Shown: one piece after another, positions 5 through 22,350 of the stretch | How the letters are laid out: each line of letters opens with the position of its first letter | Position numbering within the stretch: position 1 is the stretch's first letter | Assembly (NCBI GenBank): GCA_965249485.1 | Contig: OZ252239.1 | Span: forward strand, 3,709,598 to 3,773,597 | Source of the DNA: a bacterium | GTDB lineage: Bacteria; SM23-31 | Reading direction: 5' to 3' | Length of the DNA: 64,000 nucleotides | Notes under the pieces: generated by a model | Seen by the model: the letters and a program-made list of their open reading frames with translations, nothing else | The model's database searches: none | What the model was told of the DNA's origin: nothing | Translations under genes and position numbers: made by a program

Positions 5-20
5 TGGCATAACATTTGCC
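5..20 (+). promoter_or_regulatory. sigma54 (-24/-12) promoter candidate upstream of the amidinotransferase
   Basis: TGGCAT-AACAT-TTGCC. GG (6-7) and GC (18-19) have the exact 12-nt register of TGGCAC-N5-TTGC. It lies about 230 nt upstream of the ATG at 250. Confidence 0.6.
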
Positions 21-249
21 AGGATACTGGTTACACGAAAAATATCATTGAACTTGCGAACCTCAGTTCCGCACTGCCTTTAGACTAAATTCTATCTAAA
101 AAAATTGTTGAATAAATAAGAATTTTAATAATTTTTGTTATTTACTTGTCATGAGATGTACAATTGAAGGAAGAAATCTTTTATAATGAGTAAACTTTTT
201 ACGGACACTTCCAATGATTAACTAATAAAACTAAGAGGAGGACATTGCA

Positions 250-1434
250 ATGGCAAAGATAGTGAATTGCTGGAACGAATGGGATCCGCTGAAACGCGTG
301 ATTGTCGGTAGACCCGAAGGAACAAACGTTCCCGCACCGGAACCAGCCTGGTGGTATGATCTACCTCGCGGTGGTTTTCCATTAGGTTCACATGGACCGT
401 TCCCTCAGGAAATGGTTGATGCTGCTAACGAGCAAATGAACTATTTCGTACAACAGATCGAGAAGCGCGGCGCAATTGTCGAGCGGATCGATATTCATCC
501 GTTTATGCTCAATAAACCATTTTCATCGCCAACAGGCTGGACTCAGTTGAATGCCCACGGCGTCAACAACGTTCGCGACGTCACCATGATTCATGGTAAC
601 TACATTGTCGAGGCCACAACTGTCCGTCGCTCCCGTGTGTTTGAGCGTTTTAACCTGCGCTCGATCTTTGAGCGTTATTTTAAAGAAGATCCGGAAGTCG
701 TACACTTTGCTGCTCCGCCGCCAATGTTGAATGATGATTCCTATGTCAAGAACTATTATTACGACTATGAGAATACCTGGACAGATGAAGACAAGAAAAA
801 ACGTCTTCACAACTGGGAATTCCAGTTGACAGAAAAAGAACCGCTGTGGGATGCTGCCGACGCAATGCGTTTTGGTAAAGATATCTTCCACCAGGGTTCT
901 TGCGTAACAAACAGAGGTGGTTTTGATTGGCTGAAACGTATGTTTGGGTCACTGGGTCTCCGTTATCACCATATTCTGTTCGACACTCCGGATGACAAAA
1001 ATAAGCCTGATAACTTTCATCCATGGCATATCGATGTTAACTTTGTTCCTCTCCGTCCAGGCCTGTGTATGGTCAACCCGGATTGGAAACCACGTACTCC
1101 GGAAGTATTTGAACTGTTCAAGAAAAATGATTGGGAATTAGTTGAAGCAGCCAGACCTACCCACGTACATAAGAACGATGTCTATCTGACAGGTCTGTAC
1201 GAAGGTAAATCCTGGATCTCTATGAACACCTTCTCAATCGATCCGAAGACAGTATGTGTCGAAGCACACGAAACTGCATACTGCGAGCAGCTTGATAAGC
1301 TCGGTTTTGAAGTAGTCGCGATTCCTTATGAAAAAGTGATTCCGTTTGGCGGCGCACTGCATTGTACTACGCTGGACGTCTATCGCGAAGGTGGCTGCGA
1401 AGACTACTTTCCGAATCAGGTCGATGGTTATTAA
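250..1434 (+). CDS. Amidinotransferase (glycine/inosamine-phosphate amidinotransferase family, pentein fold)
   Basis: N-terminal NCWNEWDPLKRVIVG. Catalytic-triad motifs WDAAD, WHID and GGALHCTT. RBS GAGGAGG. Confidence 0.9.
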   Translation: MAKIVNCWNEWDPLKRVIVGRPEGTNVPAPEPAWWYDLPRGGFPLGSHGPFPQEMVDAANEQMNYFVQQIEKRGAIVERIDIHPFMLNKPFSSPTGWTQLNAHGVNNVRDVTMIHGNYIVEATTVRRSRVFERFNLRSIFERYFKEDPEVVHFAAPPPMLNDDSYVKNYYYDYENTWTDEDKKKRLHNWEFQLTEKEPLWDAADAMRFGKDIFHQGSCVTNRGGFDWLKRMFGSLGLRYHHILFDTPDDKNKPDNFHPWHIDVNFVPLRPGLCMVNPDWKPRTPEVFELFKKNDWELVEAARPTHVHKNDVYLTGLYEGKSWISMNTFSIDPKTVCVEAHETAYCEQLDKLGFEVVAIPYEKVIPFGGALHCTTLDVYREGGCEDYFPNQVDGY

Positions 1435-1453
1435 TAGATTTCTATTGTAACCC

Positions 1454-1582
1454 TCCCGGTTCGATGAGGACTTAAAATCTGACCGGTTAAACGGGCCGCT
1501 CCTTTGTGAGCCGACCCGTTTGCCGGGACCAGATACAATGAATGGTATTGGATATTAGAAATGAAATTGCAATACCATTTTT
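1454..1582 (+). promoter_or_regulatory. Structured spacer/leader between the amidinotransferase and pyrR
   Basis: Helix TCCCGG(1454-59)/CCGGGA(1523-28) encloses hairpin AAACGGG(1489-95)..GCTC/GAGC..CCCGTTT(1515-21). A second stem AATGGTATTG(1541-50)/CAATACCATT(1570-79) runs into a T tract. Confidence 0.4.
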
Positions 1583-1640
1583 ACTTTGAACATCTTTGGC
1601 AACGAACTGTTGAAGTGTTTTTTTGTTATATAGGTCTATT

Positions 1641-2162
1641 ATGGAAAAACAATTATTAGATAAAAATGGCATTGCTACTGTTGTAGCACGTATATCCGAT
1701 GAAATTTTAGAAAAGAATCTCGATCCTTCTTCTCTTTGTATCGTTGGTATTAAAAAAAGAGGCGATATTTTAGCGAACAGAATCGCTGAAAGAATTGAGT
1801 CGACAAACGGTATAAAGATTCAGACCGAAGCAATTGACATCACTTTTTACCGTGATGATATTAAGCTGAAGGCGTATAAGTATGTTGTGATGGATGAAAT
1901 CCATTTCGATGTTACTGATAAGAATGTGGTACTTGTTGATGATGTTATCTATACCGGAAGATCGATTCGGGCTGCTATCGATGTACTTATCGATACCGGA
2001 AGACCAAAGTCTCTTCAACTTGCTGTGCTGGTTGACAGAGGCGGCAGAGAGCTCCCTATTCAGCCCAATTATTGCGGCGAAAAAGCTGAAGTTTCAGCAG
2101 AGGGAAAAGTAAACGTCCGTTTTAATGAACTTGACGGTGATGATAAAGTTTTAATTTCTTGA
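1641..2162 (+). CDS. pyrR: PyrR bifunctional pyrimidine regulator / uracil phosphoribosyltransferase
   Basis: Motifs DITFYRDD, PRPP-binding VVLVDDVIYTGRSIRAA, LAVLVDRGGRELPIQP. ATG 1641 chosen over the ORF-track start at 1623. Confidence 0.92.
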   Translation: MEKQLLDKNGIATVVARISDEILEKNLDPSSLCIVGIKKRGDILANRIAERIESTNGIKIQTEAIDITFYRDDIKLKAYKYVVMDEIHFDVTDKNVVLVDDVIYTGRSIRAAIDVLIDTGRPKSLQLAVLVDRGGRELPIQPNYCGEKAEVSAEGKVNVRFNELDGDDKVLIS

Positions 2163-2170
2163 GAGAAAAA

Positions 2171-3112
2171 ATGGCGAAAAAAGTTATCGTAATTGCATTA
2201 GGTGGTAACGCCATCTTGCAGGCCGGTCAACGCGGCACCTACGAAGAACAATATGGAAATGTAAAGTTAGCCGCTACTGAGATTGTGAAAATCTATAACG
2301 AGGGCTATCGTATAGCTCTGACCCATGGAAATGGTCCGCAGGTTGGTAATCTTTATATTCAAAATAGTTTAGCGGGTGAAGCTGTACCCCCTATGCCGCT
2401 TGACGTTCTGTCAGCTGAGTCGCAGGGACTGATCGGCTATTTTATGCAGCAGGCTATGCAGAACATTTTGGCCGAAAAAAATGATACTACACCGGTAATG
2501 ACGATAGTTACTCAGGTTGAAGTTGCTTCCGATGATCCTGCATTCGACAATTGGACAAAACCGGTGGGACCGTTTCATACAAAGAGAGAAGCTGAACTGC
2601 TCATGGATAAAGCTTCGATCCAGATGAAAGAAGACAGCAAGAAACGGTGGAGAAAAGTCGTTCCTTCCCCGTTTCCAATCAGCATTGTTGAGAAAGAAGC
2701 GATCAAGGCTAATATTAAAGATGAAATAATAGTCATTGTTTCGGGTGGCGGCGGTATTCCTGTAAAACGTGAAGGAAACCAACTCGTCGGTATTGAAGCA
2801 GTTATCGATAAAGATTCGTCTGCATGTCGTCTTGGTCTCGATATTAATGCCGATATTTTGATGGTTCTGACCGATGTCGAACAGGTTGCGCTGAATTTCA
2901 ATACCCCGGACGAAAAGTGGATCGACACAATGACTGTAGAAAAAGCTAAACAATATGTGACAGAAGGACATTTTAAAGAAGGCAGTATGAAACCTAAAGT
3001 CGAAGCTGCCATCAGATTTGTAGAGAATGGTGGAGAAAGAAGTATTATTAGTTCGTTGTACTCTGCACATGCCGCAGTCCAGGGCAATGCAGGAACTACA
3101 ATAACACGGTAA
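2171..3112 (+). CDS. arcC: Carbamate kinase
   Basis: IALGGNA, THGNGPQVG, GGGGIPV, EAVIDKD, GSMKPKVEAA. ATG at 2171. Confidence 0.95.
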   Translation: MAKKVIVIALGGNAILQAGQRGTYEEQYGNVKLAATEIVKIYNEGYRIALTHGNGPQVGNLYIQNSLAGEAVPPMPLDVLSAESQGLIGYFMQQAMQNILAEKNDTTPVMTIVTQVEVASDDPAFDNWTKPVGPFHTKREAELLMDKASIQMKEDSKKRWRKVVPSPFPISIVEKEAIKANIKDEIIVIVSGGGGIPVKREGNQLVGIEAVIDKDSSACRLGLDINADILMVLTDVEQVALNFNTPDEKWIDTMTVEKAKQYVTEGHFKEGSMKPKVEAAIRFVENGGERSIISSLYSAHAAVQGNAGTTITR

Positions 3113-3266
3113 CCTTCGATTACGAACGCTCTGAGTGTCTCTTCCTGATTCTCCTGTTCATCTTGAGCCATTCGCATCTAAAAAATAGAACGACTTATAA
3201 CACTAACTCTAAAGTTTAATATGAGTGATATGTATAGAGAAATTCAAAAACTGTATTTGATTAGGC

Positions 3267-3291
3267 TTCATATTCATCATGTGAATATGAA
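3267..3291. promoter_or_regulatory. Perfect inverted repeat (operator candidate) upstream of arcE
   Basis: TTCATATTCA-N5-TGAATATGAA, about 110 nt before the ATG at 3403. Confidence 0.35.
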
Positions 3292-3402
3292 AGCATGGTG
3301 TTTTTTTCGTATACTTAGAAACCCTGTGCTATAGTTGCGTCTTTTAGAAATACCTAAAATGAAGATTATAAGCACAAAAGTAAATAACAAGGAGATGTGA
3401 CC

Positions 3403-4710
3403 ATGAAGAAAGTCCTTATTATGGGCGCCGCTGGGCGTGATTTCCATAACTTCAACACGAATTTCCGCGACAACTCGGATTACAAAGTAGTTGCCTTTAC
3501 CGCAACTCAGATTCCTGACATTGACGGGAGAGTGTATCCTGCTGAATTGACTGGCAGTCTGTATCCGGACGGTATTCCAATCCATGATGAATCGGAACTC
3601 GATTCTTTGATTCGTGAGCATAATGTTGATGAAGTTGTGTTTTCATACAGCGATGTTTCATACAACTATGTCATGAACAAATCATCCATTGTCAACAATG
3701 CCGGAGCTGCTTTCAAGACAATGGGATTATCTCAGACATGGCTAGAATCTTCCAAACCGGTTGTTGCCGTATGTGCGGTCCGTACTGGTTGTGGTAAGAG
3801 CCAGACAACACGCCGTGTTGCCGATATTCTTATCGCCCGCGGTAAAAAGGTTGTGGCTGTCCGCCATCCGATGCCTTATGGCGATCTGATCAAACAGCGT
3901 GTTCAGAGATATGAAACAACTGATGATCTCATCAAACATAATTGTACCGTGGAAGAGCGCGAAGAGTACGAACCGCATCTCGCCCGTGGCATTGTTGTTT
4001 ATGCCGGTATTGATTATGAAGCAATTCTACGCGAAGCCGAAAAAGAAGCTGACGTAATTCTCTGGGACGGCGGAAACAACGATTTCGCATTTTTCAAACC
4101 GGACGTCTATATCACCATTCTTGATCCTCACAGACCGGGACACGAAACCAGCTATTATCCGGGCGAAGTTAATCTCCGTGCAGCAAATGTACTGATTGTT
4201 AACAAAATTGACTCTGCCGAGCAGAAAAACATCGATGCGGTTGTCGCAGTTGCTAAAGAAATCAATCCTGATGCAACGCTGATTCTTGCCGAATCGACGC
4301 TGACGGTTGATAATCCTGAATTGATTAAGGGTAAAGAAGTACTCGTCGTCGAAGATGGCCCGACATTGACACACGGTGAAATGAAATATGGTGCCGGTGT
4401 CGTTGCAGCACAGCGTCTTGGCGCAGCAAAGATCATTGACCCGCGTCCGTATACCGTCAGAACAATTACCGATACGTTCACGAAATATCCTAATATCGGT
4501 GAGTTGCTTCCGGCAATGGGATACAGCGCAGACCAGGTGAAAGATATGGAAGAATCGATTAATAACACACCATGCGATGCAGTTGTTATCGGTACACCAA
4601 TCGACCTGAGAAAAATCTGTAATATTAAACAACCATCCACACGGGTCAAGTATGAGCTGAAAGAAGTCGGCGATACGACTCTCGAGGATGTATTGAACAA
4701 AATATCGTAA
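3403..4710 (+). CDS. arcE: Arginine synthetase-like P-loop NTPase (ArcE; often annotated as cyclic 2,3-diphosphoglycerate synthetase-like or GTPase)
   Basis: GAAGRDFHNFN N-terminus, P-loop AVRTGCGKSQT, RHPMPYG, WDGGNND, EDGPTLTHG, PAMGY. Recalled as closely resembling Thermococcales ArcE. Carbamate kinase and OTC are neighbours. RBS AAGGAG, ATG 3403. Confidence 0.82.
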   Translation: MKKVLIMGAAGRDFHNFNTNFRDNSDYKVVAFTATQIPDIDGRVYPAELTGSLYPDGIPIHDESELDSLIREHNVDEVVFSYSDVSYNYVMNKSSIVNNAGAAFKTMGLSQTWLESSKPVVAVCAVRTGCGKSQTTRRVADILIARGKKVVAVRHPMPYGDLIKQRVQRYETTDDLIKHNCTVEEREEYEPHLARGIVVYAGIDYEAILREAEKEADVILWDGGNNDFAFFKPDVYITILDPHRPGHETSYYPGEVNLRAANVLIVNKIDSAEQKNIDAVVAVAKEINPDATLILAESTLTVDNPELIKGKEVLVVEDGPTLTHGEMKYGAGVVAAQRLGAAKIIDPRPYTVRTITDTFTKYPNIGELLPAMGYSADQVKDMEESINNTPCDAVVIGTPIDLRKICNIKQPSTRVKYELKEVGDTTLEDVLNKIS

Positions 4711-4725
4711 ATTACGAGCCCTGGT

Positions 4726-5493
4726 ATGAAGCAAGACAAGTTGGAAGGCATTATTTTCGACGTTGATGGCGTACTTGAATTTCAGGGAACTGTTTATCCC
4801 GGTGCTATTGGACTTCTCGACGCTCTTCGTAAGAAGGGAATATATATCAGGGTTGTAACGAACAGTACATTAAAGAGCAGGAAACAGTGTACTGAGAAAC
4901 TACAAAGGAGGGGGTTTGATTTTCACGAGAGTGAAGTAATAACCGCCTCCTTTGCTACTGCTCAATTTCTCAAATCTTTACATCCGCAATCATGTTGGGT
5001 GCTGCTGAAAGGTGAAGGTCTTAAAGAATTTAAGGACTTCACCCACGACTCCGACAATCCCGAATATCTTATTCTGGGTGATCTCCGCGAAGACTTCAAT
5101 TTCCACACGATTAATAAAGCTCTGCAATGTCTGTTGAACGGATCAAAATTCATCGTGATGATTTCCGATACGGTAGATAACAGTATGGGCAGTCTGGAGC
5201 TCACAGTGGGAGCATACGGAAAAATGCTGGAAGAAGCTGCACAGATACAGGCAACCTATATCGGTAAACCGAGTAGCTACATTTTTGATATGGCATTGAA
5301 TACGTTAAATATTGACCGTACAAGTGTTGTGATGGTTGGAGATAAGATCTCTACCGACATTCTCGGAGCACAGAATGCGGGAATTAAATCAGCATTGATT
5401 AAAACAGGTGAATTCAAGGACTCTGATCTGGATTGTGATATCAAGCCGGATTATATTTTCGATTCGGTAAAGGAACTCATCCAGTTATTCTAA
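4726..5493 (+). CDS. HAD subfamily IIA hydrolase (LHPP/HDHD2/NagD-like)
   Basis: Motif I FDVDGV, motif II VTN, GKP, MVGDKISTDILGA, C-terminal KTGEFK. Confidence 0.85.
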   Translation: MKQDKLEGIIFDVDGVLEFQGTVYPGAIGLLDALRKKGIYIRVVTNSTLKSRKQCTEKLQRRGFDFHESEVITASFATAQFLKSLHPQSCWVLLKGEGLKEFKDFTHDSDNPEYLILGDLREDFNFHTINKALQCLLNGSKFIVMISDTVDNSMGSLELTVGAYGKMLEEAAQIQATYIGKPSSYIFDMALNTLNIDRTSVVMVGDKISTDILGAQNAGIKSALIKTGEFKDSDLDCDIKPDYIFDSVKELIQLF

Positions 5494-5579
5494 GTACGAT
5501 ACTTTACCTTAATTTCGTTTTGCAATTATTGCTGTTATCAATACGTTATGAGTAAATCATTCATGAAAGTGAGAGAACA

Positions 5580-6581
5580 ATGGCATATAATTTAAGAAAT
5601 AGAAATTTCCTGAAGCTCTTAGATTTTACTCCAAAGGAAATTAAATTTTTGCTTGATCTTTCTTACGATTTGAAAAAAGCCAAATATGCCGGTACTGAGC
5701 AGCCGAAGTTGACTGGTAAAAATATTGGCCTGATATTCGAAAAGGCTTCGACCAGAACACGGTGCGCGTTTGAAGTGGCAGCATTCGATCAAGGTGCGCT
5801 GATAACCTATCTCGGACCATCCGGTTCGCAGATTGGCAAAAAAGAATCTATGAAGGATACTGCCAGAGTACTTGGCAGAATGTACGACGGTATTGAATAC
5901 CGTGGTTTTGGGCAGAAAATTGTCGAAGAGCTTGGTGCTTATGCCGGTGTTCCTGTCTGGAACGGCTTGACCACTGAATATCATCCGACACAGGTCCTGG
6001 CAGATTTTCTGACCATGATGGAATATTCCGACAAACCATTGCATGAAGTTAAATTTGCTTATATCGGCGATGCTCGTAATAATATGGGAAACTCTCTCCT
6101 CGTTGGTGCAGCCAAGATGGGTATGGATTTCCGTTCTGTTGCACCGAAGAGTGTTCAACCCGAAGGTAAGCTGGTCAATGAGGCACGAGCAATCGCGAAA
6201 GATACCGGCGCTCAACTGTTAGTGACTGACGATATCAAAGTAGGTCTTAAAAACTGTGACTTCCTCTATACCGATGTCTGGGTATCGATGGGTGAAGCTG
6301 AAGAAGTCTGGAAACAGAGAATCGAACTCCTCAAACCGTATCAGGTCAACAAAGCAGCAATGGAAATGACCGGTAATCCTCATGTGAAATTCATGCACTG
6401 CCTGCCTGCATTTCACAACCGTGAAACAAGCATTGGTGAAGATGTTTTCCAGAAATTCGGTATTGAGTCTATGGAAGTATCTGAAGAGGTTTTTGAATCG
6501 GAAGCATCTATCGTTTTCGATGAAGCCGAAAACAGAATCCATACAATCAAAGCAGTCATGGTTGCAACACTGGGTGACTGA
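5580..6581 (+). CDS. arcB: Ornithine carbamoyltransferase (ArcB/ArgF; N-terminus resembles catabolic ArcB)
   Basis: [26 protein letters not shown]. Confidence 0.92.
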
Positions 6582-6611
6582 TTGATTGGGCTTACCTGGA
6601 AATCGGTAATT

Positions 6612-6647
6612 AAAAAGGGCTGTCCTTAAATTCGGACAGCCCTTTTT
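6612..6647 (+). terminator. Intrinsic (bidirectional-type) terminator
   Basis: AAAAAGGGCTGTCC-N8-GGACAGCCCTTTTT, a perfect 14-bp stem 30 nt after the OTC stop. Confidence 0.9.
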
Positions 6648-6965
6648 AAATTTATTCATCATATATGTAGGCATATTTATAGTAATAATAAATAATTCAT
6701 TATTACAGTGACAAGAAAAAAACAAATCTTGCCTTTCAACCCCACATTATATATGCTCTTCGTCATGAACGATGTAATATCTTATACCGGTATATATACG
6801 TTTTGATATTTTTCTCTTGTTAAGATTTTACTAAAAATAATAACAACCTTCTTAAATATAGCACAAATTGCACAAGACCAGTTTTTTTGAAATACTTTGG
6901 AATACTGTAGTTTCTCTATGAAATTTATACATAGTGATTCATTACACGATTAAAAAACTGAACAT

Positions 6966-6981
6966 TGGCACTGTTTTTGCT
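6966..6981 (+). promoter_or_regulatory. sigma54 (-24/-12) promoter upstream of the Na+/solute symporter
   Basis: TGGCAC-TGTTT-TTGCT, an exact match to TGGCAC-N5-TTGCW, about 90 nt upstream of the ATG at 7074. Confidence 0.8.
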
Positions 6982-7073
6982 ATAATGCTCGTTAGAAAAA
7001 TCACACCATACCTTCATTCCAAATAGTTGTAGAGTAACTATCTTTTAAGCACCAAACAAAGGAGGGATGCATA

Positions 7074-8589
7074 ATGTCTGCTATGGGTATTGGTCTTATC
7101 ATTTTTATTGCATTTTTTACCATACTTGGATTAGCCACGGTATATCTGGTAAAGGGGAGTGGGAAGCGGTATGTCATAGCCGGTAAGAGTCTGCCGTTTT
7201 TTCTTATCGGTTCGATGCATACCGCACAATCTATCGATGCCAACGCAACGATCGGCAACTCATCACTCACCTATGTCGGAGGATTCTGGGCCGGATTTAT
7301 TCTACCGGGTGATTTGGCCGCCTGTCTCATCATCACCGGTCTGTTCTTCGCAAAACCACTCAACCGCATGAATATGCTGACCCTGCCTGACTTCTACTCA
7401 CGACGCTACAATGGATTTACCGAAGTCTTGGTTTCACTCATGATGGCATTTATCTTTACGATACTGGTTGCCGGAAACTTTGCCGGCGGTGCGTGGATCA
7501 TTAACATAGTTTTTGGAATCGATTACATCACTGCCCTTATTTTGGTGGCAGTCCTTAGTTTCAGCGTACACCTGTGCAGGTGGGCTCTTTGCCTGTGCGG
7601 CAATCGACATTGTGCAAATCTATCCATCCATTATCGGATTTGTGGGAGCGTTTTTGTATCTGATTTTCGCAAACGGATGGGATTTCTTTGCCAGTTCCAT
7701 TCCTGCAAATTTTATGGATTTAAGTGGTTTAACCGACCCGGCAAACGGTGCCTATATCAACTGGGCAGGTTTCTTAGCGCTTGCAATCGGTGATATTGTC
7801 GCGCTTGACTTTATGGAGAGAGTGTTTGCCACTAAAACCCCGAAAGTGGCGCAACAGGGCTGTTTTTACGGCGCAGGACTTACCATCATTACCGGTATCT
7901 GTTGTTCGTTTATAGGTCTGATGGGTCTGAAGCTCTATCCCGGTATTGAGGATGCCAGAATGGTTCTCCCAAATGTCGCTATGGAACAAGTACCCTTTAT
8001 TTTTGGACTGTTTATTATGGGCGGTATTATCGCTGCGGGCGCATCCACCGCCGACGGCGGCATCTTAGGCGTTTCAACTGTATTTGGACGGAACATTTTT
8101 CAAAAACACATTCTGAGAAGAATGGAAGCAAAGAAAATAGCAGGGATGGAAGCAGCAGGACAGACACAAGCTCGAGAAACAAAAACATCAGATAAACATC
8201 TCCTTGTCATCAGCCGGCTCATGGCAATTCCGGTTGTAGCGCTCGCAATTTACATAGCATATGTGAAACCCGAACCGGGGATTCTGCTTATTCTTGCGTT
8301 TGATGTTGTATTTGTGGGATGTATTGTTCCACTGGTTGGCGGTCTTTACTGGCCGAAATCGAACTCAGCCGGCGCGATAGCTGCGGTTATTGTCGGTTCT
8401 GTATTGAGACTCGTCCTCTTCTATACCATGCCCGAAGAATTGGCCGGTCTCGACACTATGATTCCGCCGGTTGTTTCGCTCGTAGTGTTCGTTGTAGTCT
8501 GCTTATTGACGCAGAAACAATCTGTACCAAAACACGATGCAATTACAAAAGTACCGACAGATGAAGAAGTATTGGTCGACTTGTATTAA
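7074..8589 (+). pseudogene. Sodium:solute symporter (SSS/SLC5) split by a +1 frameshift near 7553 (pseudogene or sequence error)
   Basis: ORF 7074-7793 holds the SSS N-terminus (AQSIDANATIG, TLPDFYSRRY). ORF 7513-8589 continues in the next frame (YTCAGGLFACAAIDIVQ). Removing one base in GTCCTTAGTT joins them as ...VAVLVSAYT... Confidence 0.85.
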
Positions 8590-8711
8590 ACTATGATTTT
8601 CAATTAAGTAAATTACGCAGGTGTACTTGAAGCATATCACAATTCAATTACACTTGCTTTTTGAAATCTAAAAAATGCATTGAATTCTTAATTATTACAG
8701 GAGGATTTACA

Positions 8712-9485
8712 ATGAAGAAAAATGTTAATTTTTTACTTGTTCTAATTCTGCTTCTCGGACTAAGCACACCTGTGGCGGCACAGCCAGAAGTCGGAGTTAC
8801 GTTCGATTTTCCGTTTCTAAACAGGTACATGCTGCATGGATTTGCATTGGCAGACAATTTTGCTGTGCAGCCAACTGCTATCGTAACAGTCGATAATTTT
8901 GCTCTTACGGTTTGGGGAAACTTTGATATTAAGGATAATAACTTTGCGCCAACTCCGACTGAACTCGAGTTCAGCGAAGTCGATTATTATCTCGACTATA
9001 CTTTCGTCGGCAACGGTTTAGCATTTACTACAGGATATGTGCACTACACATTCCCCAATGTATCAGCAGATGGAGCATTAGTACGCTCATATAAAGAGCT
9101 GTATTTCATCTTGGCATCTGATTACGGCCCTTCGCTCAGCGTATGGCCGGGAATCGGTGATGACTATTCAGGTCTCTACATTCAAGCCGGCTATGGTCTC
9201 AGCATTCCTGCTGGTGAAACCAGTATCGATCTCGCAGCAACCGTTGCATGGGGTGATGAAGATCATGGTAATCTGTATTATTTTGGATATAATGACAGTG
9301 GACTGGCAGATTACAGTATCAGCGCAAGTGTGCCGATTGTTGCAAGTGATTACGTAACGATAATACCGAGTTTCATGTTCACATCGTTTCTTGACGGTGA
9401 TCTAAAAGATTTCATTGATGACTCACCTGGTTTTCCTGATGCTGATAACATTACTGGCGGTGTTACTGTATCATTCTCTTATTAA
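8712..9485 (+). CDS. TorF-like putative outer-membrane porin
   Basis: Signal peptide ending VAA-Q, NRYMLHG (cf. family YxxRG), EVDYYLDY, alternating beta strands, aromatic C-terminus (VSFSY). RBS GGAGG, ATG 8712. Confidence 0.7.
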   Translation: MKKNVNFLLVLILLLGLSTPVAAQPEVGVTFDFPFLNRYMLHGFALADNFAVQPTAIVTVDNFALTVWGNFDIKDNNFAPTPTELEFSEVDYYLDYTFVGNGLAFTTGYVHYTFPNVSADGALVRSYKELYFILASDYGPSLSVWPGIGDDYSGLYIQAGYGLSIPAGETSIDLAATVAWGDEDHGNLYYFGYNDSGLADYSISASVPIVASDYVTIIPSFMFTSFLDGDLKDFIDDSPGFPDADNITGGVTVSFSY

Positions 9486-9592: not shown

Positions 9593-10345
9593 TCAGAATG
9601 ACCAGCCGGCATTCAGAGAGAAGTAAATTTCATTATCCCGATTGACTGTGTCTTCAAATAAACCAACAAAGGTCACACTTGGTGAGATCTCAACTATACC
9701 TGCCGGAATACCTCCATAGAGTGATAACTCAATATGACTAAATCCACTATTCGCGCCGAATTGGCCATTATTATATCCTAAAACTGCGCTTGCACCGACC
9801 GAGCCTTCGCCTGCTTCGACGGACTGATCGATACCGAACGTTGCATACAGATCATCACCCAGATTAAAATCGTAGTACAGAGTCAGGGTTGGCGCAAGGT
9901 AGGGGACTCCCGGCGTAAATGCTGCATATACTTCCTGAGTAGTGTGGTCGTCGAATTCAAACTCATCCTGATTCGGGAACGTATAATAAATAAGACCCAG
10001 AGAAAGGCCGGCACCGTTAGCGAATGAAGCTGAATAGTCCAATGTAAAATCCAATTCGTCGGCTGCACCGCTTATATCCCGGTCATCCAGACCTGCAGAA
10101 TACCACACATTGGCCGTAAAGCCGGAATCACCGAATCCAAAATCGAGGGACGGTTGAATCGCAGGATCATCAACTAAATTATAACCCCTCCAGATATATT
10201 TCGTGACGAATGCCGCCGATCCCGAAACCGAAACCTGCGCTCTAGCCGGAATGCCGGTCAAAATGAGTATAATAATTATAAGAGCGATATTCATGAGAAC
10301 AATATGAAAAGTGCCCCTCAATTTAGAAGATATTGAACGTGACAT
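9593..10345 (-). CDS. TorF-like putative outer-membrane porin
   Basis: Signal peptide ARA-Q, KYIWRG, PAIQP, ELDFTLDY, C-terminal AGWSF. RBS AGGAGG. Confidence 0.78.
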   Translation of the reverse strand: MSRSISSKLRGTFHIVLMNIALIIIILILTGIPARAQVSVSGSAAFVTKYIWRGYNLVDDPAIQPSLDFGFGDSGFTANVWYSAGLDDRDISGAADELDFTLDYSASFANGAGLSLGLIYYTFPNQDEFEFDDHTTQEVYAAFTPGVPYLAPTLTLYYDFNLGDDLYATFGIDQSVEAGEGSVGASAVLGYNNGQFGANSGFSHIELSLYGGIPAGIVEISPSVTFVGLFEDTVNRDNEIYFSLNAGWSF

Positions 10346-10803: not shown

Positions 10804-11454
10804 TGAGGAATCTCTTTAGTGGTTTTTACAAGACAAACCATCACTAAGGTGTAACAGAAGTTCTTTTGAATATGCAAATTCCTGTCTTCCTCTGTAGATC
10901 CGGTCGTAAATATAGAATTGTGTAGATTAAATTGCAAGAAATTATTTTTATAATTATAATTACACATCTTCAGTAAATGTTGGGCTTTTCGGGTTTATAA
11001 CTAATAGATATATTTTATTTTACAGATGTTTCTTCTTATTATGATATAAAACTTTGACTAATCACCCGGGCAGAGCGCTCTACTAATATCATTACAGATA
11101 CTAAATTATTGAGGGGTTCAATCACCCAATTGCATATAGTGTATGAATTATATTTTCTGGTATGACTTATTGTGACGATACACAGCCGCAAGTGATTTAT
11201 ACCATGGCTTTGGTTCTTTTTCTACATAAGAAAACCATTCTTTGCTTTTGCACCAAAGGCTTACAAATGTGCTGATATTTCGCTGCGATTGACCTTCTCC
11301 TTTCAACACCAAATCTTTTGAAGCTAATTTAAGACCGGAGTTGGGAAGATGGTGAGTAATAGAAACTTACATATACTCCACAACATCAATCTCCCGAATT
11401 CTCTTGCATTTCAAAAAAATTTTTTTATCATACAGCACATTCAGGATACTCATT

Positions 11455-12420
11455 ATGACCGACCAGAACAGCACAAATCAACAGTATGATGTGAACCGTG
11501 TCCCCCGCTTTGCTAATGTTGCCACATTTATGAGATGTAAAATGGCTGAATCATCGGACAATCTCGACATTGCAATGGCCGGGATTCCTTACGATTTCGG
11601 CTCATCGTTCAGGAGCGGAGCACGGCACGGTCCGGCACAGATACGGGAAATGTCCCGCCTTATCCGCCAGGTCCACCCTGTTTCGAAAATCGAGCCTTTT
11701 GCCTTATGCAGGATTGCCGACATTGGCGACACACCTGTGAATCCGCTCGATATCGACGAGAGTCTTGCACTCATTGTCGACTTCTTCGATAGAGTTGTGG
11801 CGGCAGGAGCAAAGCCGCTTGCCGTAGGTGGTGATCACACTATTTCACTTCCGGTTCTGCGTGCGTGTGCAAAATCGGGTCCAGTCGGACTGATCCAGAT
11901 CGATGCCCATTCCGATACTCTCGATGAAATGCTCGGTAAGAAGTTTGCGAACGGAACCCCGTTTAGGCGGGCAATCGAAGAAGGCCTTGTGGACCCGAAG
12001 CGGACGATTCAAATCGGAATCCGCGGAACACTTTTTAAAGCAGATGAGCTTGACTGGGCACATGAAATGGGAATCACCATCATTACAATTGACGATTTTT
12101 ATGAACTTGGCATTCCACACATCATAAAAACTGCGAAGGATCTTGTTGGTCAGGAACCGGTGTACCTCACCTTTGATATAGATAGCATCGATCCAGCCTA
12201 TGCTCCTGGTACCGGTGGCGTTGAACCGGGCGGCATGTCTGTTCGTGAAGCACAGGTGCTTCTCCGGGGTTTGTACGGTTTAAATCTGATCGGTGCGGAT
12301 GTGAATGAGGTTTCTCCTCCGCTCGATCCTACTGGAATGACAGCACTCGTTGCCGCAAATATCATGTTCGAGGAGTTGTGTCTGCTTACCGACACAGTAA
12401 ATCGTCAGAAAAACGGATAG
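11455..12420 (+). CDS. Ureohydrolase (agmatinase family; recalled as closest to guanidinopropionase GpuA-type)
   Basis: PRFA N-terminal motif, GARHGP, GGDH, DAHSD, TFDID, APGTG, EVSPP. ATG 11455 preferred. Confidence 0.88.
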   Translation: MTDQNSTNQQYDVNRVPRFANVATFMRCKMAESSDNLDIAMAGIPYDFGSSFRSGARHGPAQIREMSRLIRQVHPVSKIEPFALCRIADIGDTPVNPLDIDESLALIVDFFDRVVAAGAKPLAVGGDHTISLPVLRACAKSGPVGLIQIDAHSDTLDEMLGKKFANGTPFRRAIEEGLVDPKRTIQIGIRGTLFKADELDWAHEMGITIITIDDFYELGIPHIIKTAKDLVGQEPVYLTFDIDSIDPAYAPGTGGVEPGGMSVREAQVLLRGLYGLNLIGADVNEVSPPLDPTGMTALVAANIMFEELCLLTDTVNRQKNG

Positions 12421-12687
12421 TATCGGATCAGTCGGAATAATATCACGGTTTTCAAGTAAATTATAGGAAAATCACTTGCTGCTATAGCATACAGCTGCTC
12501 ACTTCCTTTAAAAAACTCATATTTTTATTTTATCATTGAATTACTCAATTAATTCTTATACATTAGCGATTTATGCTTAAGATGTAATGATAAGGCTTTG
12601 CGCCTTTGCCAAATTTATTGTATAACGTTTACTGGCGCCATATCTTCCCGGACCCGGTAATATATTTCCCATATTGAGGTGAAACAA

Positions 12688-13689
12688 ATGAAATACAGGC
12701 TTATACTTTCATGTACCGTATTAGCATTTTTAATCAGTGGCTGCGGTCAGGGAAACGGATCTTCCGATTCAGGTGAAAAGATAATCCTGAAAATGTCACA
12801 TAACGGAAATGAGCGCCACCCATTCCATGATGGTTTTCTGAAATTTAAAGAAGTGCTTGAAGCCGAGACAAACAATGCAGTTGAAGTGCAGATTTTTCCG
12901 AACGCCCAAATTGCATCCGATGAAGAATTAGGTATGATGGTTAAACTTGGTACCATTGCAGGCGGTGCCGCAAGTGCAGGTGGCGGTTTAGCACCCTACG
13001 TCCCAGAAGTCGATCTGTTTAATCTTCCTTTTATCTTTCGGGATCTCGACCATTTCTACAGTGTGCTTGACGGCCCCATCGGCCAGCGGGTAACGAGAAA
13101 AATTGAAGAAAATCTCGATTGCATAGTGTTAGGCTACTGGTTTTCCGGTGTCCGGAACGCATGGAATTCTTCTAAACCGATTTTGACCCCGGACGATTTC
13201 GCCGGAATGAAGATTCGGGTTATGTCAAGTCCTGTTTATGTTGAAACCTTCGATGCACTGGGAGCACAGGCTACACCGATGTCGTACGGCGAGCTGTTTT
13301 CGGGCCTGCAGCAGGGCGTTGTAGATGGAGCAGAGACAGATCACATCGATCTTTTGATTGACGGTTTACATGAAGTTACCAAATATGTATCTTTGACGAA
13401 CCATTTTTATCTTGCAGTCGGTCTGATTTTCAGTAAACGAATCTATGACAGTCTTCCCGGCCATATTCAGGCCGCGGTCTTCAAGGCCGGAGCAGAATCT
13501 ATTAAAGCGCAACGGGTGGCTATGGAATCTCAAACCGAGGAATCGCTTGCAGAGCTGAAAAGGTTAGGAAAACTGGAATTTCATGAGGTTGACAGATCTC
13601 TTTTTCGGGAAAAGGTTCAAAGTGTGTACACAAATAATGCGCAAAAAGTCGGCGGTATGGAAATTATACAGCAGGTAATAAACAAATAA
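12688..13689 (+). CDS. dctP: TRAP transporter substrate-binding protein (DctP family, lipoprotein)
   Basis: Lipobox ISG-C, KIRV, PMSYGELFSGLQQGVVDG. Followed by small and large TRAP subunits. Confidence 0.9.
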   Translation: MKYRLILSCTVLAFLISGCGQGNGSSDSGEKIILKMSHNGNERHPFHDGFLKFKEVLEAETNNAVEVQIFPNAQIASDEELGMMVKLGTIAGGAASAGGGLAPYVPEVDLFNLPFIFRDLDHFYSVLDGPIGQRVTRKIEENLDCIVLGYWFSGVRNAWNSSKPILTPDDFAGMKIRVMSSPVYVETFDALGAQATPMSYGELFSGLQQGVVDGAETDHIDLLIDGLHEVTKYVSLTNHFYLAVGLIFSKRIYDSLPGHIQAAVFKAGAESIKAQRVAMESQTEESLAELKRLGKLEFHEVDRSLFREKVQSVYTNNAQKVGGMEIIQQVINK

Positions 13690-13776
13690 TCCGATTGCGC
13701 ATAAACTTATAGTGCAGACTGTTCATATTGAGCAGCATACAAAAGTACAACACCTAATAAAGGGGATAGTAAAATC

Positions 13777-14283
13777 GTGGAAAATGTTCCCGTACTCCGT
13801 AATGTCAAAACTATTTATAAACATCCATTCGAGTTTATTCTCTGTTTATTGATTGTGTCTCTTGTTAGCGTAACGTTTGCGCAGGTTGTATCACGCTATG
13901 TGCTCCAAACATCACTTGCCTGGTCCGAAGAGCTTGCACGGTTTCTCCTCTTGTGGCTCGGTTCGCTTACTGCAGCCTACGCGTTTAAGACAAAAGCTCA
14001 TTTTGCACTGCGGTTTGTTGTGGCTCGATTTTCAGAACGGTTACAAAAAGCAACGTATACCGCAGTAGTTGTCATTTTGACTGTTTTTTTAGGTGTTTTT
14101 ATTTATCAGGCATTTCAATACACACTCAGCGTACGGAACCAGATTGCACCCGGCACGCAAATGTCTATGTCTATACCCTATTCCTCCGCATTATTCGGTG
14201 GTATATTAATGCTCTATCATGTTATCAGAAACTGGTGGACAGAGTTATTCAGACCTTCTGCTGCAGAACCTGAACAAAAATAA
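13777..14283 (+). CDS. dctQ: TRAP transporter small permease
   Basis: Four hydrophobic segments, RYV..SLAWSEELAR motif. GTG start with RBS. Confidence 0.9.
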   Translation: MENVPVLRNVKTIYKHPFEFILCLLIVSLVSVTFAQVVSRYVLQTSLAWSEELARFLLLWLGSLTAAYAFKTKAHFALRFVVARFSERLQKATYTAVVVILTVFLGVFIYQAFQYTLSVRNQIAPGTQMSMSIPYSSALFGGILMLYHVIRNWWTELFRPSAAEPEQK

Positions 14284-14326
14284 ATTCATAATTAAACTGC
14301 GAATTGTATACGAGGTATAATCAAAT

Positions 14327-15610
14327 ATGGGTGTAATTGTTGGAATCACGTTTGTTCTGGCACTACTGATGTCTGTGCCTGTTGCAATGTCACTCGGCGT
14401 TGCGGCTTTTGTAGGCATTCTTTATATAAACCCAGACATTCTTATAATTTTACCACAAAAATTCCTCACATCGCTTGATTCATTTTCACTGCTTGCTATT
14501 CCGCTTTTTATCCTTGCGGGATCACTCATGACATATGGAGGGATAGCGCGCCGAATTATTGATTTATGTCTTGCTTTTGTCGGACGCATACCGGGGGGGC
14601 TTGGATTTGTTGTGGTTATTGCAACATTTTTCTTCGGTGCGATCTGCGGATCTTCAAGTGCGAAAACGGCCGCAATCGGATCGGTCATGCTGCCGGAAAT
14701 GGTGAGAAAAAAGTACCCGGCGGATTATGCAACCGCACTTTTTGCCGCTGCGGGCGGTGGATCAACACTTGTTCCTCCATCAATCGATTTAATTATTATC
14801 GGCGTTGTCGCAGGTGTTTCCGTTACCGGCCTCTTTGCCGCAGGAATACTGCCAACCATTGTAAATGCTATTGCATTATTGATCCTGGTCTATATTTCAG
14901 CGAAAAAGCTGGATCTTCCAGTAGCACCAAAAATTTCATGGGCAGAGAAAAAGGTTTTAATCAAAAACGGTATCCTCCCATTGATGATGATTTTTATCGT
15001 TCTCGGTGGCATATACGGTGGTATTTTTACTCCAACAGAAGCTTCCGCAGTAGCAGTTGTGTACGGTTTTCTCCTCTCGTTTTTTATTTATAAAGAACTT
15101 TCATTTAAAGACTTACAAAACTCGCTTTTGAGTACTGCGTCTTTGACAGGTGTTGTAATGGTTGTACTCGCCATGGCTGGTATGTTCTCTGCTGTTCTCA
15201 CATTCGAGAGAATACCCCATGAATTAGCAAATCTGATTTCGACTTATGCTGATAACAAAATTGTGTTTTTGATGATGGTTAATGTCGTGTTTCTCGTTAT
15301 CGGTATGGTTATGGATGCACTACCTGCAATTATCATATTAATGCCTATTATGATAAAGGTCGCCGGTCCGCTCAATATTGATCCAATTCACTTGGGCATA
15401 CTTATTGAGGCAAATGTCGGACTTGGTATGATCACTCCTCCTGTCGGAGTCTGTCTTTATGTAGCATGTGGTATCAGTAAGATACCGATTGAAAAAGTTA
15501 TTAAACCGTCAATCCCCTTCATGATATTTCTATTTATTTCATTGATGGTTATAACGTATGTCCCGGAAATCTCACTCTTTTTTCCGAGATTTCTTGGATT
15601 AATCCATTAG
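14327..15610 (+). CDS. dctM: TRAP transporter large permease
   Basis: LLAIPLFILAG, GAICGSS, LVPPS, GIFTPTEA, GMITPPVG. Confidence 0.93.
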   Translation: MGVIVGITFVLALLMSVPVAMSLGVAAFVGILYINPDILIILPQKFLTSLDSFSLLAIPLFILAGSLMTYGGIARRIIDLCLAFVGRIPGGLGFVVVIATFFFGAICGSSSAKTAAIGSVMLPEMVRKKYPADYATALFAAAGGGSTLVPPSIDLIIIGVVAGVSVTGLFAAGILPTIVNAIALLILVYISAKKLDLPVAPKISWAEKKVLIKNGILPLMMIFIVLGGIYGGIFTPTEASAVAVVYGFLLSFFIYKELSFKDLQNSLLSTASLTGVVMVVLAMAGMFSAVLTFERIPHELANLISTYADNKIVFLMMVNVVFLVIGMVMDALPAIIILMPIMIKVAGPLNIDPIHLGILIEANVGLGMITPPVGVCLYVACGISKIPIEKVIKPSIPFMIFLFISLMVITYVPEISLFFPRFLGLIH

Positions 15611-20281: not shown

Positions 20282-21238
20282 TTATTTCTGCAAACCGGAT
20301 GAGAGCCACATATTTTTTAACACCCAGATTGCATTTGCGGGACGCTCAGCAAGACGGCGGGTATAATAGGGAAACCAGTCCGGACCGTATGGAATCGTTG
20401 TGCGAAGCTTATAACCTTCCTGGAGGCGCAAATCGTGAAAGTTGTGTCTGATACCATAACTTTGCTGAAACTCAAAATCTTCCTTTGATCTACCGTACCG
20501 TTCCGCCGCAGCTTTGGCCTCTTCAATCATCTGCTCATCATGGGTTGCGATCCCCGGATATGTACCCTCCTTCATGATGAGATCAAGACATTTGGCATAA
20601 TTTGCATCAACATCACTTTTCTTCTGGAACGCCACACTTTCAGATTCATAATAGGCACCTTTCACAAGACGTATCCGTCCCCCTTTTTTGCTCACATACC
20701 GGATATCTTTCTCCGTTCGGTATAAGTAAGCTTGCAGAACAACACCGATATTGTCATACCCATTTGCAAAAAATTCTTCCCAGATGTCGAGCGTAGTCTG
20801 GACAATGCCGGAAAACTCCATATCAATTCTGATGAAAATATTAAATTTTTTAGCTTTTTCCATAATTGTCGTCATCTGTTCAATACAGTGATCCCGACTG
20901 ATATCAAGGCCAAGTTGGGTAAGTTTGACCGAAACATGGGACTCCCATGGCGATGCTCCACTCTTGTGGATTTTGTCAAGAAGACCACAGTTTCTATCAC
21001 GTGCTTCTGCACACAATACCGGGTCATTGACACTTTCTCCAAGGTAGGTTGTCGTACATCCAATTCCCCGTTCATTAAAACTCTTTATCTCAGCTATCGC
21101 CTCATCGATTGTTTCACCTGCAACAAATTGCCGGGCAAACGATGTTGGAGTTTTCATCCCCTGTTTTTGAACAATGCCGGTAATCGTCTTATTCTCGGAC
21201 AAAAACAACATGAAATAGCGCCATATCTGTCGAATCAT
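20282..21238 (-). CDS. Monofunctional proline dehydrogenase family flavoprotein
   Basis: FVAGETI, SVKLTQLG, RIDME, RLVKGAY, IATHD, PYGPDWFPYYTRRLAERPAN. Confidence 0.9.
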   Translation of the reverse strand: MIRQIWRYFMLFLSENKTITGIVQKQGMKTPTSFARQFVAGETIDEAIAEIKSFNERGIGCTTTYLGESVNDPVLCAEARDRNCGLLDKIHKSGASPWESHVSVKLTQLGLDISRDHCIEQMTTIMEKAKKFNIFIRIDMEFSGIVQTTLDIWEEFFANGYDNIGVVLQAYLYRTEKDIRYVSKKGGRIRLVKGAYYESESVAFQKKSDVDANYAKCLDLIMKEGTYPGIATHDEQMIEEAKAAAERYGRSKEDFEFQQSYGIRHNFHDLRLQEGYKLRTTIPYGPDWFPYYTRRLAERPANAIWVLKNMWLSSGLQK

Positions 21239-21391
21239 ATATTACACCACACGTGGGATTTCAATTTTAAAGAATAAAGTTTCATAAGAAGATGTCCACT
21301 ATAAAAAATGTAATACTTTTTTTATACAAAATAAATCTAAATATTTCTGATTACTGCAAAAAGAGTCCTAACCGATTCCACGGTAAAGCAG

Positions 21392-21420
21392 TTGACTTTT
21401 TTCTGTTTTTCATCTATATT
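21392..21420 (+). promoter_or_regulatory. sigma70-type promoter upstream of SDR-OCD
   Basis: TTGACT-N17-TATATT, 110 nt before the ATG at 21531. Confidence 0.6.
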
Positions 21421-21530
21421 TAATACTTCAGAATATGAGCGGTTTTATACAAACTCACACCTTGTTTTTAAGCAAATAAGACACTTCCACGTACGGTTAT
21501 ACCGTACTAACGCTCCGCGAGGATAAAGTA

Positions 21531-22283: not shown

Positions 22284-22350
22284 TTGATTTCTTTCCTGAC
22301 ACAATAAATGATTATCATCTATACTTAGTTTTTAGAACAAAAAGGAATGT

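Follow-up and report, generated by a model that had tools for sequence, protein, structure and literature searches.

What is a gene for an amidinotransferase doing at the head of a gene cluster for arginine conversion? The question is raised by a 64,000-nucleotide (nt) stretch of contig OZ252239.1, here called the window; the cluster analyzed lies at its start (positions 5–9485). Its enzyme genes span positions 250–6581, all on the + strand, and encode in this order an amidinotransferase (AT), PyrR, carbamate kinase (CK, ArcC), an ArcE-like protein, a HAD-IIA phosphatase and ornithine carbamoyltransferase (OTC). Judged by sequence and gene context, this cluster quite probably encodes a catabolic "amidino harvest" cycle, in which ornithine would serve as catalytic carrier. 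A preliminary description of this DNA had already interpreted the cluster as an amidino shuttle. This interpretation is supported at the level of comparative genomics, and none of the findings that could have refuted it here went against it. The AT gene had been placed directly upstream of arcC, followed by the genes for the ArcE-like protein and OTC. All these genes are where they were said to be and the AT gene is indeed upstream, but not directly, since the gene for PyrR intervenes; in addition, the HAD-IIA phosphatase gene separates the ArcE and OTC genes. Both genes had been missed, as had a frameshift in the importer gene.

The AT gene (250–1434, + strand) encodes a protein of 394 amino acids (aa) that belongs to the AGAT family. 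A phmmer search against the PDB matched SxtG (7e-50), HsvA (4e-47), human AGAT (1e-42) and StrB1 (9e-29), covering residues 5–387, and the homology to enzymes of the AGAT/GATM, StrB1, CyrA, SxtG, HsvA and AmtA type is full-length with 28–41% identity. The Asp, His and Cys motifs, described before as intact, could be confirmed position by position: residues D170, D254, H303, D305 and C407 of AGAT align with D110, D201, H260, D262 and C372 of the window AT, and all five are invariant across the 101 homologues collected. An insert of 9 aa (PxDxxKPDN[FY]) in front of HPWHID, at the position of the "300-flap" of AGAT, marks the clade of the window AT. The members of this clade are 70–93% identical across Desulfobacterales, Dehalococcoidia, Desulfotomaculales, Peptococcaceae and others. 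The Pfam model for arginine deiminase (ADI, PF02274) is reached with only 12.3 bits against a cut-off of 22.8 and NCBIfam gives no match. Since the models are built mainly on deiminases, this sub-threshold score weighs little against the homology to the PDB entries. JGI annotates the AT of the main clade as glycine amidinotransferase; NCBI labels it "serine/threonine protein kinase" (P0011, P0024, P0051 and others), a name that appears to be wrong or outdated.

The gene at 3397–4710 (+ strand) encodes a P-loop protein of 437 aa. It is 46% identical end to end, with one gap, to homologues from Hyperthermus butylicus and Pyrodictium occultum (E-values 4e-149 and 8e-139), and both genera are listed as arcE carriers in the paper on ArcE (PMC11032458). 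In the family alignment the motifs of the ArcE family are found in the window protein: the Walker A motif RTGCGKS, RHPMPYG, WDGGNND and EDGPTLTHG. The sole sequence match to a solved structure is the cyclic 2,3-diphosphoglycerate (cDPG) synthetase 9sxb, which is weak (1e-5 over 110 aa). An AlphaFold model with a pLDDT of 85.6 has the cDPG synthetases 8ORU and 8ORK as nearest folds, 8ORU at 1e-17, and LpxK (4LKV, 4EHX and 4EHY) as the next matches at approximately 1e-8. These are the structural relatives published for the characterized protein TK2200, namely cDPG synthetase and LpxK 4EHY (PMC11032458). The identity to homologues from the carrier genera, the matching fold relatives and the adjacency to arcC and arcB bear out the designation as an ArcE-like NTPase, and the protein is accepted here as a probable member of the ArcE family, by way of homologues from the named carrier genera rather than of TK2200 itself. 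It would accordingly be predicted to act as an arginine synthetase. This large family counts 3588 representatives at E<1e-3. Some homologues are labeled "cyclic 2,3-diphosphoglycerate synthase" or "GTPase" (P0172, P0230, H26), names that seem wrong or outdated, and a homologue on a haloarchaeal megaplasmid is divergent from arcC.

The remaining two enzymes of the pathway are assigned by family models. ArcC (2159–3112, + strand) exceeds the equivalog model TIGR00746 with 408.5 bits against a cut-off of 358.25, and the OTC (5580–6581, + strand, 333 aa, ArgI/ArcB type) exceeds NF003286 (576.6 versus 515 bits) and TIGR00658 (418.2 versus 280.85 bits) and contains the Pfam domains OTCace_N and OTCace. 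Its best PDB match is 3UPD (4e-168); ArgI from E. coli and the catabolic OTC from P. aeruginosa also match. Sorting the OTC as catabolic or anabolic by the nearest solved structures was uninformative. With ArcE, ArcB and ArcC together within 2159–6581 and no ADI in the window, the gene set of the arginine synthetase pathway is present. The earlier statement that the window contains no ADI, no ArcD and no non-ribosomal peptide synthetase or polyketide synthase (NRPS/PKS) holds for the 33 non-nested open reading frames of at least 150 aa outside the cluster, none of which encodes such a protein. The unit from AT to OTC is closed by a strong intrinsic terminator (6610–6649, + strand) with a 16-bp stem containing seven GC pairs, followed by a T-run.

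Is the linkage of AT and ArcE a peculiarity of this genome? A genome scan with the AT yielded 79 loci, and look-ups of close homologues added annotated contigs. We define the main clade as the 26 distinct ATs with at least 69% identity to the window AT. ArcE is found at 17 of these loci, any arc gene at 20, OTC and CK at 15 each and a Na+/solute symporter (SSF) at 13. Sixteen of the ATs have at least 4 kb on both flanks; here ArcE is located within 10 kb in 12 cases and an arc gene in 14. The AT–ArcE linkage is present in at least five phyla (Desulfobacterota, Chloroflexota, Actinomycetota, Bacillota, Aminicenantes and others) and the gene order is shuffled between them. It is sigma54 activator, OTC, CK, ArcE, AT, SSF in Desulfobacterales, ArcE, AT, SSF, GNAT, CK, OTC in Desulfotomaculales and GNAT, HAD, OTC (on the opposite strand), ArcE, AT, SSF, CK in Dehalococcoidia. 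Further distinct orders are found in Acidimicrobiia, Gaiellales, Chloroflexia, a Bacteroidota MAG (metagenome-assembled genome) and Aminicenantes. Desulfitobacterium relatives have orthologues as well. The synteny with importers and regulators is conserved in rearranged form. A motif scan of the fetched loci revealed no ADI beside AT.

Four more distant AT clades are also linked to ArcE. In the clade with 53% identity to the window AT an amino-acid-type ABC importer separates AT from OTC-ArcE (L044), and in the 49% clade the order is sigma54 activator, AT, OTC, CK, ArcE, ArgD-like aminotransferase (L067). The 46% clade, from Anaerolineae MAGs, shows AT, a creatininase (TIGR04448, 301 versus 235 bits), OTC and ArcE (L064, L066), which suggests that these clusters are a version specific for creatinine or creatine. 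A D-aminoacylase-like amidohydrolase and an EutB-like dehydratase are encoded there as well (L064 573–8122, L066 3172–9540). The clade with 42–43% identity is otherwise of the SAR11 type; it includes an AT next to ArcE in a Thermoleophilia MAG (L252) and the arrangement AT-CK-ArcE-OTC-HAD in a Desulfobacterales MAG (L254). At the latter locus an FAD-dependent oxidoreductase (sarcosine-oxidase-like; DAO) and EtfB/EtfA are encoded 5′ of a PAS-LuxR regulator and the cluster (1402–4584); this pair may oxidize the amine product. Thus, the synteny is not unique to the window, as it recurs in many phyla and five AT clades.

The reverse search gave a different picture. Among the 80 closest homologous loci found with ArcE as bait, with CK and OTC scored within 8 kb, CK lies beside ArcE in 16 and OTC in 11, and AT is encoded at just three. 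Since ArcE stands beside most ATs of the main clade, the dependence is one-sided. This looks as if AT depends on the ArcE pathway and not the reverse, AT being an add-on feeder. The sister genome has the cluster in two pieces, AT-PyrR-CK and SSF/ArcE-HAD-OTC, which are 1.8 Mb apart (L160, L335). Both halves are located on one 3.62-Mb contig of ERZ25074053, therefore the co-occurrence at the genome level persists.

These data bear on the idea that the adjacency merely reflects a shared "arginine regulon" and that the AT has an unrelated role, such as arginine:glycine amidinotransfer or hydrolysis of the amidino-enzyme to urea, without any cycling. In its favor are the Pfam score of the AT, which stays below the threshold, and the several main-clade ATs and most of the distant ones that have no arc gene nearby. 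However, five AT clades and many phyla have acquired or retained the linkage, with shuffled order, the dependence is one-sided, a dedicated importer is co-located and the catalytic residues of the AT are those of transferases. We regard a mere regulon as very improbable.

How might the encoded enzymes work together? Transamidination of the AGAT type is reversible and proceeds by a ping-pong mechanism, with ornithine as the natural co-product or acceptor. In the proposed cycle the substrate, a guanidino compound that is probably a zwitterionic acid, would pass the TorF-like porins and then the Na+/solute symporter. AT would transfer the amidino group via a thio-amidine intermediate at Cys372 to ornithine, giving arginine and the free amine. 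ArcE would then convert arginine, ADP and Pi into citrulline, NH3 and ATP, OTC would cleave citrulline by phosphorolysis into ornithine and carbamoyl phosphate, and CK would gain a second ATP from carbamoyl phosphate, releasing NH3 and CO2. Ornithine would return to AT and thereby act catalytically. The net reaction would be the conversion of R-guanidine to R-NH2, two NH3 and CO2 with a gain of up to 2 ATP, and a share of the carbamoyl phosphate might be diverted to pyrimidine synthesis. The enzyme activities, ornithine as acceptor and the direction of the flux are what we infer from homology and gene context.

The gene context favors the catabolic over the reverse direction for several reasons. 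SSF or ABC importers adjoin the AT genes, and exporters of the EamA or MFS type sit beside AT paralogues of Desulfovibrionaceae, where the units are SSF importer-AT-EamA exporter, AT-MFS or SSF-AT-AT-HAD. Removal of the amine by an exporter would drive the near-equilibrium amidino transfer forward. A creatininase is part of the cluster in one AT clade, regulation of the inducible type (sigma54, two-component, PAS-LuxR) accompanies the clusters, and no tailoring or biosynthetic partner (methyltransferase, NRPS/PKS) was found in approximately 30 clusters. Because arginine deiminase is irreversible, a variant that combines ADI with AT could operate only catabolically; urine, moreover, is rich in creatinine-type compounds. 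Such a variant seems to be present in Actinobaculum massiliense, where the consecutive locus tags HMPREF9233_01647-01650 are arcA, arcB, arcC and "L-arginine:glycine amidinotransferase" (PMC6314084). All four proteins were more than 8-fold up in urinary catheter biofilm and were assigned by the authors to polyketide metabolism (PMC6314084). This cluster, known here from the published table, resembles a variant of the same scheme built on ADI. For ArcE itself the physiological direction is from arginine to citrulline and ATP, with a ΔG0′ of −6.8 kJ/mol (PMC11032458).

The opposite direction would mean that CK, OTC and ArcE make arginine at the expense of 2 ATP and that AT builds a guanidino product (for instance an osmolyte, nitrogen store or toxin precursor) on an imported acceptor, with ornithine being recycled. 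To our knowledge all characterized bacterial ATs (SxtG, HsvA, StrB1) are biosynthetic, and we know amidinotransferases only from biosynthesis. Relatives of the window AT in a plasmid collection are of the biosynthetic Streptomyces and Pantoea types (at most 41% identity), and a Photobacterium homologue from this collection has no arc gene among its neighbors. ArcE and AT are both reversible (PMC11032458 for ArcE; established for AGAT), NAGS-like, argB and argD-like genes adjoin some of the clusters, and the pairing of pyrR and CK recalls a pyr operon whose carbamoyl phosphate synthetase could be replaced by CK. CK may indeed act as carbamoyl phosphate synthetase in this lineage, which is the chief support for this alternative. 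Against it speaks that methyltransferase, NRPS/PKS and tailoring genes are present in none of the approximately 30 clusters, that the SSF and ABC systems are importers, the EamA/MFS exporters being paired with paralogues, and that the creatininase in the cluster of one clade is degradative. The ADI-containing version of A. massiliense cannot run in reverse, and synthesis of carbamoyl phosphate by CK is unusual in bacteria. Genes upstream of the window had been considered before as a possible source of a biosynthetic acceptor. The genes that precede AT in close relatives encode an SDR protein and an aldehyde dehydrogenase, and neither NRPS/PKS nor another biosynthetic acceptor pathway. Altogether, a biosynthetic direction seems quite unlikely.

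The regulatory sequences and the PyrR gene raise the question of what the catabolic cycle would serve. PyrR (1623–2162, + strand; pyr-operon regulator/uracil phosphoribosyltransferase) is identified by NF003549 with 201 bits against a cut-off of 138. Its gene lies between AT and CK only in the window and in L001, L002 and L006, hence it is lineage-specific. In the sister genome pyrB-pyrI is located beside ArcE-HAD-OTC (L335 11285–12657). These neighbors suggest that pyrimidine synthesis may draw on the same carbamoyl phosphate, as it does in Thermococcus kodakarensis (PMC13260591). A sigma54-like −24/−12 element that is near consensus (TGGCATaacatTTGCC, positions 5–20, + strand) was read directly from the sequence approximately 230 nt 5′ of the AT start; it is kept at the orthologous position in L001, which is weak evidence by itself. 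A consensus sigma54 promoter (TGGCACtgtttTTGCT, TGGCAC-N5-TTGCT, 6966–6981, + strand) precedes the importer start by approximately 93 nt and is the sole exact match in the 64 kb, with 0.14 expected by chance. Equivalent elements are found 5′ of the first cluster gene in L004, L005 and L067, adjoining a sigma54 activator gene. In three lineages the leading gene of the cluster has a sigma54 element in front of it, and genes for activators or for regulators of the PAS-LuxR type adjoin.

With the same chemistry and the same direction, the aim could be to scavenge nutrients from environmental guanidino compounds: NH3 and carbamoyl phosphate would serve to assimilate nitrogen and to supply pyrimidines or arginine, and ATP would be an incidental gain. 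Promoters and activators of the sigma54 type often mark nitrogen-regulated operons, PyrR is encoded within the operon and pyrB-pyrI next to one of its halves in the sister genome, and the ArcE pathway is the source of carbamoyl phosphate in T. kodakarensis (PMC13260591). On the other hand, CK is present in 15/26 clusters and its usual role in bacteria is to make ATP from carbamoyl phosphate, and the hosts are energy-limited anaerobes. We consider scavenging as the primary aim unlikely; it overlaps with an energy-yielding cycle and does not exclude it.

The importer gene encodes an SSF symporter (7074–8589, + strand), which presumably takes up the guanidino donor. Both halves match Pfam SSF, and they align in different frames to residues 1–163 and 165–500 of the intact 504-aa orthologue from L004. 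The gene therefore contains a 1-nt frameshift near 7562, which is an insertion outside any homopolymer (near 7562–7566). In the nearest genome (L001 16755–18242) the SSF is distributed over three or more frames, with the enzyme genes intact.

Which guanidino compound would be the donor? Hints are given by the creatininase, the DAO/ETF pair upstream in L254 and, in the window, a pair of an agmatinase-family gene and a TRAP transporter. The agmatinase-family ureohydrolase, possibly a guanidino-acid hydrolase, is encoded at 11404–12420 (+ strand; TIGR01230, 198.6 versus 174 bits), and members of this family hydrolyze guanidino acids (PMC9772407). Homologues adjoin the cluster in L003, L005, L008 and L010, although the association is loose. 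The TRAP transporter genes dctP, dctQ and dctM (12679–15610, + strand, assigned by Pfam DctP, DctQ and DctM) follow 3′ of the ureohydrolase; their association with it is uncertain. Free guanidine was considered and appears unlikely as a donor. The Rfam search detected no riboswitch, including the guanidine riboswitch, and no PyrR-binding RNA in the window, and importers of the SSF, ABC and TRAP types suggest zwitterionic or acidic substrates.

The HAD-IIA phosphatase (4726–5493, + strand) scores above the cut-off of TIGR01460; its nearest model is TIGR01458, below the cut-off of that model. The family of TIGR01458 presumably includes the P-N phosphatase LHPP. The phosphatase accompanies the AT-ArcE clusters at L001, L004/5, L010/11, L019, L170, L254 and L335; it is linked to at least two AT clades and missing from 79/80 ArcE loci without AT. 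Our guess is that it repairs N-phospho side products. A short NAGS-like GNAT is encoded inside several clusters; acetylation of the amine or priming of the ornithine pool are its possible roles.

Some observations speak against the catabolic cycle. Anabolic enzymes are among those of the ArgI/ArcB type, to which the OTC belongs, and the HAD-IIA phosphatase has no step in the cycle. Genes resembling those for arginine biosynthesis (NAGS-like, argB, argD-like) as well as PyrR and pyrBI adjoin several loci, a neighborhood that would be compatible with an anabolic or a regulatory grouping as well. The broken importer may reflect decay of the pathway or of the importer in this lineage, or an error of the long-read assembly. 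Finally, the equivalent of Arg322 (R322) of AGAT is not conserved across the AT family, so that binding of ornithine or arginine is not readable from the AT sequence. Reading it from the equivalents of R322 and S355 was ruled out, as these positions are not conserved.

The region 3′ of the importer encodes two putative porins. The first is a small outer-membrane β-barrel protein of 274 aa (8661–9485, + strand) with a signal peptide and a C-terminal aromatic residue. An enzyme function of this open reading frame was ruled out, since it is a paralogue of the neighboring TorF-family protein (28% identity, E 1e-12); the gene is not conserved in L001. The second is the TorF-family putative porin itself (9593–10345, − strand; TIGR02001, E 4.7e-10, below the cut-off of the model). 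Its gene is convergent with that at 8661–9485 and is kept beside the cluster in L001 and L010/L011.

Further downstream (20282–23325), 10–13 kb from the cluster, genes for a proline dehydrogenase (− strand) and a protein of the ornithine cyclodeaminase family (+ strand) were found; through them ornithine might be drained to proline and further. The region 24887–63938 is dense in predicted secreted peptidases and hydrolases (two M14, three M24, four M28 and three DUF885 proteins) and also contains FG-GAP, FGE-sulfatase-like and PD40-amidohydrolase proteins and two Sortilin/BNR proteins. The run of secreted peptidases indicates that the organism is proteolytic and degrades amino acids. The genome nearest to the window is the 3.78-Mb MAG OZ244870.1, which carries the cluster too, as does the complete genome CP070652.1.

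AT genes without arc genes are found in two other groups. Desulfovibrionaceae MAGs from gut or animal samples (E02__bin133, SRR7614695_binner12, RGIG1962) encode approximately 6–12 AT paralogues each, some of them in tandem. These paralogues (L017–L061, L068, L074) are 45–77% identical to the window AT and have no arc neighbors. Approximately 78 SAR11 genomes have an AT of a distinct clade (42–45% to the window AT), again without arc genes (L256–L331). In Pelagibacter ubique HTCC8051 (L325 4853–9155) the AT gene stands with genes for an EamA-type transporter, an M24 hydrolase (creatinase/ectoine-hydrolase-like) and a threonine-aldolase-like PLP enzyme. In this lineage, which is auxotrophic for glycine, the unit may serve to obtain glycine from guanidino compounds.

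In a wider reading, the window would exemplify a widespread form of substrate-level phosphorylation. Anaerobes of sediments, bioreactors and guts would strip guanidino compounds via ornithine, ArcE or ADI, OTC and CK and export the amine, and the substrate range would be set by AT paralogues, of which up to about a dozen are present per Desulfovibrionaceae genome. Candidate donors would be guanidinoacetate, creatine and creatinine, guanidino acids and precursors of invertebrate phosphagens. We see about an even chance that this generalization is correct. If so, a family known only from biosynthesis would have an energy-conserving catabolic role, and the arginine synthetase pathway, two years old, would be widened from one amino acid to a nitrogen-rich class of compounds. 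It would also account for the conserved (70–93%) and mis-annotated AT gene in Desulfobacterota, Chloroflexota, Actinomycetota, Bacillota and other anaerobes. In anoxic sediments and guts, such organisms would provide a sink for creatine-type compounds and for the guanidino compounds of invertebrates, with relevance to uremic solutes and creatinine turnover.

How does the proposed cycle relate to known systems? The preliminary description knew of no earlier account of the combination. In agreement with this, the full-text literature searched contained no paper with both "arginine synthetase" and "amidinotransferase" and no link between ArcE and an amidinotransferase, and searches that paired amidinotransferase with enzymes of the arc pathways, with guanidino compounds and with anaerobes returned no description of such a route. 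According to a review from 2025, degradation of guanidino metabolites usually proceeds via urea, and amidinotransferases are regarded there as biosynthetic (PMC12623156).

The biosynthetic ATs (AGAT/GATM, StrB1, CyrA, SxtG, HsvA, AmtA) share the Cys-His-Asp set and the two guanidino-binding Asp residues with the window AT. They run from arginine to a product (creatine, streptomycin, toxins), whereas the clade of the window AT has importers and catabolic arc genes as neighbors and would, in the proposed cycle, form arginine. Creatinase and guanidinobutyrase or other guanidino-acid hydrolases act on the same class of substrates, and an agmatinase-family gene or a creatininase is located beside some of the clusters. 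These hydrolytic routes release urea without conserving energy (PMC12623156, PMC9772407); the proposed route, in contrast, would yield up to 2 ATP per group.

The ArcE-ArcB-ArcC pathway of T. kodakarensis (Michimori et al. 2024, PMC11032458; 2026, PMC13260591) comprises the same three enzyme families in one transcription unit with the same expected chemistry, and a possible side role in the supply of carbamoyl phosphate is common to both. There, arginine is converted to ornithine. The window cluster adds AT and an importer, so that ornithine would be recycled and guanidines other than arginine admitted; the HAD-IIA phosphatase, PyrR and the porins are further extras. With the ADI (arcABC) pathway the cluster shares OTC and CK, which yield ATP from the ureido group, the clustering of the genes and the anaerobic lifestyle. 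It differs in that the window has neither ArcA nor ArcD and that ArcE takes the place of the hydrolytic step, by which a second ATP would be gained. The agmatine deiminase pathway (AguA, putrescine carbamoyltransferase, CK) follows a shared logic, as ATP is obtained from a non-arginine guanidino group via a carbamoyl intermediate. In that pathway the substrate itself is deiminated and has its own transcarbamoylase, whereas in the window cluster a single transfer would lead into the ordinary enzymes of arginine and citrulline. The closest kind are therefore the carbamoyl phosphate-based ADI, ArcE and agmatine deiminase pathways. All enzyme families involved are known; what is new is their combination and the catabolic role proposed for the transferase.

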